Source of the DNA: Escherichia coli
GTDB lineage: Bacteria; Pseudomonadota; Gammaproteobacteria; Enterobacterales; Enterobacteriaceae
NCBI RefSeq assembly: GCF_001677475.2
Contig: NZ_CP015229.1
Length of the DNA stretch: 64,000 bases
Direction: 5' to 3' (one strand)
The notes beneath the pieces are model-generated. The model saw only the letters and a program-made list of their open reading frames with translations, did no database searches and was not told the DNA's origin. The position numbers and the translations under genes were made by a program. Positions 31,148 through 32,203 of this stretch are shown one piece after another; position 1 is the first letter of the stretch; each line of letters opens with the position of its first letter.

Positions 31148-31793
31148 GTATGAAGGCCGTATTGTCGGCTATGGTTCAAGGGAACTGCGCGTTGAAACCA
31201 TATCCTGCTGGCTGGCCCGCACAATCATTCAGACAAAGCACTATTCCCGCCGTTTTGTGAATAACTCCTGGTTGCATCTGGGGGTATTCAGCGGACGTGA
31301 TCTGGTTGGCGTTCTCCAGTGGGGATACGCCCTTAATCCCAACTCAGGGCGTCGGGTCGTGCTGGAAACGGATAACCGGGGCTATATGGAACTGAACCGC
31401 ATGTGGTTACACGACGACATGCCCCGCAACTCTGAATCACGGGCTATCAGCTACGCACTGAAAACCATCAGGTTACTGTATCCATCAGTGGAGTGGGTTC
31501 AGTCCTTTGCAGACGAACGCTGCGGACGTGCAGGTGTTGTGTATCAGGCATCTAATTTTGATTTTATTGGTAGCCATGAAAGCACGTTCTACGAGCTGGA
31601 CGGCGAGTGGTATCACGAGATAACGATGAACGCGATTAAGCGTGGAGGACAACGAGGCGAGTATTTGCGGGCTAATAAGGAGCGGGCGGTGGTACACAAA
31701 TTTAATCAGTATCGCTACATCAGATTCCTGAACAAGCGCGCAAAAAAGCGACTAAATACTAAGCTATTCAGGATTCAGCCATACCCGAAGTGA
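31098..31793 (+). CDS. mom: Mom DNA-modification protein
   Basis: GTG at 31098 with GGAG 7 nt upstream gives 231 aa (length I recall for Mu Mom); sequence [46 protein letters not shown]. Confidence 0.85.
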
Positions 31794-31810
31794 TCCCACG
31801 TAATGAATAA

Positions 31811-31837
31811 AAAAGCAGCGGCCAATGCCGCTGTTTT
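31811..31837 (+). terminator. intrinsic terminator after mom
   Basis: CAGCGGC-CAAT-GCCGCTG followed by TTTT. Confidence 0.75.
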
Positions 31838-31943
31838 ATCTTGAATAACTTCCATATGCGCGCTTCTAACTTATCTTGAAAGAATTCCATATCTATCTTG
31901 AATAATTTTGCGCGCTTTATATACCGCTCGATGAGTATCTTCA
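31838..31943 (+). repeat. right-end transposase-binding-site region of the Mu-like element (exact terminus uncertain, 31919-31943)
   Basis: TATCTTGAA at 31838, 31872, 31894 plus TATCTTCAA at 31936; TGCGCGCTT twice (31857, 31909); read inward, TTTCAAGATA resembles the Mu R2 core TTTCACGATA. Confidence 0.6.
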
Positions 31944-32203
31944 AGCTCGATATTCCCATCGTAAACATCTGAGTAGACAAGATCGCCGGTGTGATCTGTA
32001 ACCGATACGAGCGCAAGAAAATCAGCTGGACAAGCAAGTGATTTACAGGTCTGATCAGTGAAGCGTATCCGCTTGATGTGCCCCGCCCTATCCTGGTAGG
32101 TTCCCAATGCTTTTCTTAGCAGGGATTCCAGCAAAGCAGGTTCATCCGCAATCAAAGGTGTGAAGCGGGATTTGACGTCTTCGAGTAATTGTCGTGGTGT
32201 CAT
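31871..32203 (-). pseudogene. small P1 late-region ORF (slot of pmgC in my recollection), 3' end apparently replaced by the Mu-like end
   Basis: The last ~10-24 codons are encoded by the Mu-like end repeats, so the native C-terminus is probably lost. Confidence 0.45.

Follow-up and report, generated by a model that had tools for sequence, protein, structure and literature searches.

A Mu-like transposable prophage has inserted into pmgC, an essential late gene of a P1-like phage-plasmid, in the Escherichia coli lineage represented by contig NZ_CP015229.1 (RefSeq assembly GCF_001677475.2). The window, that is, the whole stretch of 64,000 nucleotides analysed here, contains the right-hand side of this arrangement, with Mu-like sequence (com, mom, a terminator, and three end repeats) running to position 31919, and P1-like sequence from 31920, within pmgC. 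Judged by its sequence, the inserted end is not that of Mu, and belongs to a separate lineage of Mu-like elements, referred to here as "TA-ended", while the copy present in the window appears to be a hybrid with a second, "Mu-type" lineage, produced either by cellular recombination or during assembly. A probability of about 0.7 is assigned to this explanation as a whole, which comprises a TA-ended insertion in pmgC, a defective P1, and a hybrid copy in the window.

The insertion in pmgC

The features around the junction are as follows.

30962..31147, plus strand: com, from the Pfam Zn_ribbon_Com match of the gene on a right-junction contig, and BLAST to Mu com
31098..31793, plus strand: mom, 231 amino acids (aa), Pfam Mom, 89.5-89.9% versus Mu, SfMu, and D108; the exact protein is widespread
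31816..31833: hairpin 3' of mom, a bidirectional terminator-like site with a T-run on either strand
31836..31919, plus strand: right end (attR) of the non-Mu, TA-ended lineage, with three TTCAAGATA[AG] sites and the terminus ...GCGCGCTTTA-3'
31920..31923: TATA, right-hand copy of the 4-bp target-site duplication, from the overlap of the P1 flanks
31871..32203, minus strand: pmgC' fusion open reading frame (ORF), 95 PmgC residues plus 15 from the transposon end; the exact protein, WP_244585986.1, is found on several contigs

The initial annotation had described a Mu-like end after the mom terminator, followed by end repeats and then by P1-type genes, and this order is present in the window. The com-mom segment (31014-31819) is 89.5-89.9% identical to Mu, SfMu, and D108 by BLAST. 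The G+C-rich hairpin has a T-run after it on either strand, which makes it terminator-like on both strands, and the motif YTATCTTGAA follows in a single orientation at 31836-31845, 31871-31880, and 31893-31902. These end copies represent three of the four matches to the motif in the whole 64-kb window, for which shuffled sequences predict 0.26. The right end (31836-31919) is 100% identical to that of RM9088. Homology to P1 begins exactly at 31920, with 96-97% identity to pmgC of P1 and tubA of P7, and 100% identity to the IncY plasmid CP099272.1. RM9088 and STEC388 carry this right end on their chromosomes, and these copies have a common sequence up to ...GCGCGCTTTA (31919) and are divergent beyond it, and the element terminus is placed at 31919 because these independent copies part from the window there. 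The same terminus adjoins differing flanks in at least five genomes.

The minus-strand fusion ORF (110 aa) matches the intact 188-aa PmgC over its first 95 residues and draws the last 15 from the transposon end, within the 10-24 codons estimated initially. The truncation of a host ORF had thus been recognized correctly, but the ORF, which was taken to be a small one, is the essential late gene pmgC.

Contigs of different samples, at least five in number (GCA_018683295.1, GCA_031299685.2, and three Logan runs), encode the identical fusion protein, so the insertion cannot be put down to a single faulty assembly. In an alignment of three of these right-junction contigs with the window, identity across the junction was 99.99-100%.

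As the window starts inside the element, the left junction was sought in other assemblies, by means of the C-terminal half of PmgC and the members of its hit clusters. The first match of this half (P0001) was rejected as a pmgC gene split by an internal disruption, with no insertion junction. A 102-aa ORF (P0009, starting MNNLLGHIYPLNV...), which is as expected for a frame that runs from an inverted element end into the 3' half of pmgC, lies on contigs of GCA_002516285.1 and GCA_018683295.1, the second of which carries both the right and the left junctions. The P1 part of these left-junction contigs consists, in order, of the S and R tail-fibre genes, gp16, sit, pmgB, tub, and the 3' half of pmgC, and the element part, of the left end, c, ner, a gene for a 698-aa transposase, a gene for a 317-aa B protein, and kil. 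The TA-ended left end reads TATGACCAAGTAAATTATTCAAGATAA, and the pmgC flank expected beside it reads ...CAGCGGGTATA / ...CATTCAGCGGGTATA.

When the P1 flanks are aligned with the uninterrupted plasmid, the left flank stops at base 6004 and the right flank begins at 6001, which gives the overlap TATA. The target duplication is 4 bp long, and not the 5 bp predicted in the initial annotation; its left copy is seen only in the sister assemblies. With both junctions recovered there, the nesting of a Mu-like prophage in a P1-like phage-plasmid, which had been proposed from the right side alone, is established. The prediction of a left end followed by the remainder of pmgC holds for GCA_002516285.1 and GCA_018683295.1, but the identity of positions 1-10244 makes a chromosomal left flank more likely in the contig analysed here.

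Exact-pattern scans with the right junction and the predicted left junctions returned no match in the viral_contigs, genome_contigs, and metagenome_contigs collections; a degenerate pattern did match the window, and, given that its left half was assumed to be ...CCTAGTCATA and is in reality ...CTTGGTCATA, it could detect right junctions only. The junction is absent from annotated phages, from PLSDB, and from 5,426 complete E. coli genomes.

Two lineages of Mu-like elements

The two lineages of Mu-like elements in E. coli are 92-97% identical across the segment equivalent to window positions 1271-31836, and their differences are confined to the left module (attL, c, ner, A, and B) and the last ~80 bp. 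They can be told apart as follows.

Mu-type, examples read: bR_120_Kylling and STEC388 (prophage between chiP and glnS)
TA-ended, examples read: RM9088, STEC346, VL40, FDAARGOS_943, and the P1 left-junction contigs
Mu-type, transposase: A gene of 666 aa, with the PGAP product name "transposase domain-containing protein"
TA-ended, transposase: 694-698 aa, 23-25% identical to the Mu-type 666-aa A
Mu-type, ends: TGTATTGATTCAC...CGCCGCTTCA, with MuA-consensus sites; attL TGTATTGATTCACTTGAAGTACG
TA-ended, ends: 5'-TATGAC...GCGCGCTTTA-3', with TTCAAGATA[AG] at 17, 88, and 139 nt from the left terminus, and at 17, 39, and 74 nt from the right terminus
Mu-type, target duplications: 5 bp (CGGCC, GTCGC)
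TA-ended, target duplications: 4 bp (TAAG, ATTC, TTCA, TATA)

The right end found in the window occurs together with the TA-ended transposase in the closed genomes of RM9088, STEC346, VL40, and FDAARGOS_943, and in the first three of these, where both ends were read, each element is flanked by 4-bp repeats. The two Mu-type prophages read from end to end have Mu-type right ends and 5-bp duplications. No MuA-consensus site (YGTTTCAYTNNAARYRCGAAAR) was found at up to five mismatches in the right end of the window, whereas Mu-type ends yield two or three good matches, and the right terminus is ...TTTA, in contrast with the ...CA-3' of Mu proper. The transposase at the P1 left junction in the sister assemblies is only ~23% identical to MuA. 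On these features of its sequence, the inserted end is assigned to the TA-ended lineage rather than to Mu. With respect to the initial annotation, the right end is not of the Mu type, and the A C-terminus and B in the window are.

The degeneration of a true Mu end was considered and ruled out, given the exact terminus in at least five independent insertions, and the existence of an isolated phage with the same end design. The termini of this lineage are 5'-TA...TA-3' in place of the canonical TG...CA, and the first repeat lies 17 nt from each terminus. With regard to the Mu-type lineage, GCA_020144605.1 contains a Mu-type left module (100% over 2.6 kb) flanked by acnB, while the flank in other assemblies is ansP/yncE; this difference in location points to an apparently recent move of the Mu-type element among these strains.

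A hybrid copy in the window

The left end of the window contains the following genes.

2..280, plus strand: 3' part (final 92 codons) of a Mu-type transposase A gene that the window start truncates; the frame-2 translation is the C-terminus of the 666-aa A of bR_120_Kylling
319..1278, plus strand: MuB-type AAA+ transposition ATPase, 319 aa, Mu-type allele, with Pfam AAA_22 and Phage-MuB_C, and ~83% nucleotide identity to Mu B

Adjacent A and AAA+ B genes at the left end of the element are the arrangement of a transposable phage, and here the first 1270 bases of the window (the last 92 codons of A, followed by B) are Mu-type. The A C-terminus, which is presumably a close match to MuA of Mu itself, and B have no similarity to the TA-ended A or B. 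Positions 1-1500 are 99.3% identical to the prophage of bR_120_Kylling, and all 25 E. coli matches listed for them bear the product name that PGAP gave to the examined Mu-type A genes. The exact B protein stands beside a 662-666-aa A with DDE_2 and HTH_Tnp_Mu_2 in 10 of the 10 places listed, and the exact MuB and Mor proteins, found in 185 and 982 blocks, respectively, are chromosomal at every place listed. The window, then, has a TA-ended attR but a Mu-type B and A C-terminus, a combination that does not occur in any of the six elements examined in closed genomes.

A contig of GCA_016118665.1 agrees with positions 1-10244 at 100.000% identity and contains, further upstream, the complete Mu-type A (662 aa, DDE_2 plus HTH_Tnp_Mu_2), along with ner, c, attL TGTATTGATTCAC, and the chromosomal genes ansP and yncE. 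The same arrangement is found on a 113-kb chromosomal contig of GCA_018682865.1, which is 99.88% identical over 1-10244, includes the exact gp45 of the window (23849-24385), and reaches the window equivalent of ~28.6 kb by coordinate arithmetic. Positions 30618-42203 are 100% identical to a P1 right-junction contig, and interior contigs from the genomes with the P1 insertion equal the window over 20473-28700, except for 1.5-kb patches at 23846-25342 (in two interior contigs) and 27626-29098 (in another). The chromosomal Mu-type prophage is the copy followed by the window between position 1 and at least ~24.7 kb, and the P1-borne copy is followed from a point between ~25.3 and 31.8 kb, with certainty from 30618. 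The switch from chromosomal to P1-borne sequence must occur within the ~25.3-31.8 kb stretch, which also contains the tail-fibre gene.

28000..30249, plus strand: tail-fibre gene, 749 aa, WP_077884162.1, on record on one contig only, of 136,480 bp

No 100% match to the interior segment 19500-23500 was found among the 5,426 complete E. coli genomes. The two patches contain 56 and 34 differences, with sharp edges, and several short-read contigs begin at the patch edge at 25380; from this pattern, the patches look like gene conversion between co-resident Mu-like prophages.

Taken together, the two sets of identities indicate that the copy in the window is a hybrid, whether produced in vivo by recombination or by the assembler, and that the left flank of this contig is more likely to be chromosomal than P1. 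The sequence ~3 kb upstream of the window start is predicted to be a Mu-type attL followed by the chromosome, and not the 3' half of pmgC. A double crossover that would have exchanged only A and B was ruled out, given that, between attL and the end of B, the two left modules have no nucleotide homology.

Origin of the hybrid

The junctions show that a TA-ended prophage inserted at codon 95 of pmgC on a P1-like IncY phage-plasmid. In the mechanism proposed for the hybrid, a single homologous exchange would have joined the left arm of a chromosomal prophage to the right arm of the plasmid-borne one. The two elements share an interior of more than 20 kb at 92-97% identity. In the cell, this exchange would place the P1 plasmid in the chromosome, with a hybrid prophage on either side, to form the cointegrate chromosome - [Mu-attL...TA-attR] - pmgC' - P1 backbone - pmgC'' - [TA-attL...Mu-attR] - chromosome, and an assembler that swapped arms within the shared interior would give the same topology. 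If each transposase acts only on its own ends, a hybrid whose right end is foreign to its Mu-type transposase should be incapable of transposition; in a rarer variant, the Mu-type or a chimeric transposase would work on 5'-TA...TA-3' ends.

Real recombination is given about even odds as the origin of the hybrid, with an assembly mis-join less probable, and some other origin accounting for a small remainder. A chromosomally integrated P1-like plasmid is a possibility raised by the hybrid structure. The fuller account, in which recombination would have fused the phage-plasmid into the chromosome between prophages with mismatched transposase and ends, is tentative; it would amount to a docking by portable homology, similar to that mediated by insertion sequences (IS) in the formation of high-frequency recombination (Hfr) strains, and would leave both phages immobile.

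A number of observations weigh against this explanation. The left end of the contig lies outside the window, and the chromosomal left flank is a prediction; the sequence on its own fits real recombination and mis-assembly alike. In addition, the tail fibre WP_077884162.1, the fusion protein WP_244585986.1, and the left-junction ORF WP_244585999.1 all list a longest contig of 136,480 bp, a length which fits a ~101-kb P1-like backbone plus a 35-kb element. There is probably a contig that carries both junctions, and it may be the source of the window; if all three proteins do lie on a single 136,480-bp contig from which the window comes, the structure would be neither a simple cointegrate nor a simple circle. 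The phage vB_YpM_5 is, moreover, a natural chimera, with a TA-ended-type A body, a Mu-type C-terminal tail, and a Mu-type B, so that a functional chimeric transposase is possible in principle, given that only 92 codons of A are visible.

A purely computational origin is quite possible, although at somewhat less than even odds. A chromosomal Mu-type prophage and a separate P1 plasmid with an intact TA-ended prophage would coexist, and the assembler would have crossed over in their interior. Every short-read assembly examined breaks inside the element, at the window equivalents of ~1962, 25380, 28.6-29.1 kb, 30618, 31753, and 31807, as expected of a repeat, and the switch lies where the contigs of the P1-insertion genomes equal the window; the lack of the hybrid pairing in the six closed-genome elements points the same way. 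By contrast, the repeats are traversed by a contig of at least 64 kb, which suggests long reads, and these resolve short repeats, but not necessarily 20 kb or more of identity, and the patchy differences in the interior suggest exchange between the elements in vivo.

An intact and functional mosaic inside P1, with two TA-type ends, a chimeric transposase with a Mu-type domain III, a Mu-type B, and a left flank formed by the 3' half of pmgC, is improbable. Its attractions are that vB_YpM_5 has a chimera of this kind, with the switch ~29 codons before the end of A, that the window includes only the last 92 codons of A, and that the tail fibre and both junction ORFs share the 136,480-bp longest contig. 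The 92-aa A C-terminus retrieved only fragments when used as a protein homology query, being too short to reveal a chimeric transposase. The chimera is rated low because the window is base-identical over 1-10244 to chromosomal prophages with a full-length Mu-type A (662 aa), and because the left modules, from attL to the end of B, lack nucleotide homology, which leaves illegitimate and very recent joining as the only route. The A and B adjoining the P1 left junction, furthermore, are of the TA-ended type in both assemblies in which it was read, while the Mu-type product name is borne by the 25 listed matches to 1-1500.

The direct transposition of a Mu-type A/B hybrid into pmgC, with MuA acting on a TA-ended right end, is very improbable: the TA-ended sites do keep a TTCAnGATAA core that resembles part of Mu R2, but the right end lacks MuA-consensus sites at up to five mismatches, the duplication is of 4 bp, as in the TA-ended lineage, rather than the 5 bp of Mu, and the same insertion point and right junction are accompanied by a TA-ended left end and transposase in two assemblies.

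Expected consequences for the P1 host

The late promoter upstream of pmgC is present in the window.

32235..32253, minus strand: P1 late promoter LPsit, with 18 of 19 bases equal to the annotated LPsit of P1 AF234172

The P1 gene order is recognizable around pmgC, with LPsit-pmgC-tub-pmgB-sit on one side, and immI (c4/icd/ant) and kilA-repL on the other. In the P1 annotation, LPsit has pmgC as its first gene and then tub and pmgB, and the promoter is conserved in the window. The pmgC gene is essential in P1, and its product is virion-associated and has been assigned to head-tail joining (PMC9024508).

The insertion at codon 95 truncates PmgC and duplicates TATA, and places ~35 kb of DNA, together with a terminator-like hairpin, between LPsit and the tub-pmgB-sit genes, which include the tail-tube and tape-measure genes. 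On the minus strand, the hairpin would probably also halt LPsit-driven transcripts that enter the element. Virion production should stop from the insertion alone, because pmgC is essential and is the first gene of the LPsit operon, and the P1 replicon would, on published P1 genetics, persist as a plasmid that yields no infectious virions.

The initial annotation had asked whether the hybrid replicon could still be packaged. The headful of P1 is roughly 100-110 kb, and a replicon of roughly 133-136 kb would exceed it, and would not fit with terminal redundancy. This size problem is real, but secondary to the loss of pmgC, and the P1 is probably already defective, whatever the headful limit.

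Other features of the window

The remainder of the window is occupied by two large blocks.

1271..31836, plus strand: body of the Mu-like prophage (kil, gam, gemA, mor, lysis, terminase, portal, head, tail, baseplate, tail fibre, com, and mom), from Pfam families in identical or near-identical contigs
32357..64000: P1-like backbone (immI region with ash/icd/ant, kilA-repL, DUF3800 cargo, and baseplate genes), from plasmid matches

The nucleotide similarity of the prophage to Mu itself is limited to 1-5000 and com/mom. There is no megablast match to 5000-31000, which includes the lysis, head, and tail genes, among 50,697 phage records, whereas E. coli chromosomes commonly hold this late region (48 complete genomes matched 19500-23500); the family appears to be one without a sequenced isolate bearing a similar structural module. 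The 749-aa tail fibre has a long Ala/Gln/Glu-rich stretch, a second tail-fibre assembly gene (Caudo_TAP) lies upstream of it, and a single DUF4376 gene is followed directly by com-mom (30839-30962). Neither gin nor an invertible G segment is present, and the tail-fibre assembly gene and com are only 123 bp apart.

In the backbone, 39001-64000 is collinear with P1-like plasmids, at 96% coverage and 98% identity, and a dam-type methylase, a dnaB-type helicase, and parAB are among the features annotated under the best plasmid matches to this segment, being known from the annotation of the matched plasmids. The best match in PLSDB is AP027478.1, a 140,473-bp E. coli plasmid that is ~40 kb longer than a typical P1-like plasmid, and is without this junction. 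Where P1 has simABC, positions 32357-34315 encode an SH3-domain protein (344-355 aa), a YfjT-family protein, and a small membrane-type ORF, and the same replacement is found in hundreds of the P1-like plasmids in PLSDB. Downstream of repL, 38083-39251 contains a DUF3800 gene (234 aa) and an overlapping ORF of 154-159 aa, while CP099272.1 has another short ORF and hokD, and this site may hold variable cargo.

Relation to known systems

Mu-like phages nested in other mobile elements have already been documented. Six of the ten Mu-like phages in 13 closed CC119 genomes of Shiga toxin-producing E. coli (STEC) sit inside mobile elements, including Shiga toxin (Stx) phages (PMC10132054). The Sp18-like phages inserted in the Stx-converting phages LC727881 and LC727895 are likewise nested, and their transposases are 76% identical to that of the P1 left junction, with a 4-bp duplication annotated by the depositors of LC727881. 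The hosts of the Sp18-like phages are a lambdoid Stx prophage or a virulence plasmid, rather than a P1-like phage-plasmid, and the insert of LC727881 has the left terminus 5'-TG and TTTGATAC-type repeats, in contrast with the 5'-TA and TTCAAGATA repeats of the element described here.

The closest isolated phages for the transposition module are vB_YpM_5 and vB_YpM_6 (Muvirus, isolated virions), at 82% aa identity over transposase residues 1-664. The terminal architecture of vB_YpM_5 is shared (5'-TATGA...GGTAAAT and ...TTTTGCGCGCTTTA-3'), but its internal end repeats are of the TTTGATAC type, it has a Mu-type B and A C-terminal tail, and megablast shows no similarity between it and the late region of the window. 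In this phage (MT374853.1), residues 1-664 of A are of the TA-ended type, while the last ~29 codons and B are of the Mu type, by comparison with window 194-1278. From this division, the A C-terminal tail seems to travel with B as a module; in Mu, the tail of A contacts B.

The genome plan of Mu, D108, and SfMu (A, B, kil, gam, gemA, mor, late genes, and com-mom) is shared by the element, with com/mom ~90% identical. In contrast with Mu, its right end lacks MuA sites and terminates in TA rather than CA, its duplication is 4 bp long, it has no gin or G segment, and its late genes are not similar at the nucleotide level. In the 1970s, laboratory P1::Mu hybrids were reportedly obtained by the insertion of Mu itself into the P1 plasmid prophage under selection, whereas the present case is a natural event that involves a different transposase lineage.

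P1/P7-like plasmids reported with resistance cargo (bla CTX-M, mcr-1; PMC9603915, PMC5786510) are examples of a P1-like IncY replicon that gains mobile DNA and persists as a plasmid; the cargo there is a resistance gene, whereas here it is a whole 35-kb prophage in an essential morphogenesis gene. Plasmid carriage of such elements is rare. Only 26 of 72,556 PLSDB records contain a related transposase, none of them at 80% identity or more, and the matches to 1-1500 and 19500-23500 in the 5,426 complete E. coli genomes are all chromosomal. A literature search found no published report of a Mu-like insertion in a P1-like plasmid.

Significance

The label "Mu-like" hides whether the parts of a given copy match, as the two lineages differ in the transposase module, the ends, the termini (TG/CA versus TA/TA), and the duplication length (5 versus 4 bp). 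When more than 20 kb of closely similar prophage is present on both a plasmid and the chromosome, phasing needs very long reads, and a "nested prophage" or an "integrated plasmid" needs read-level proof.

The insertion has the appearance of a pmgC knockout that arose in nature, in a gene whose essential role was demonstrated only in 2022. It represents a clear case of how a phage-plasmid could turn plasmid-only, through the arrival of a second phage in its late operon. If the recombinant is real, it would also represent a route for a P1-like plasmid into the chromosome.

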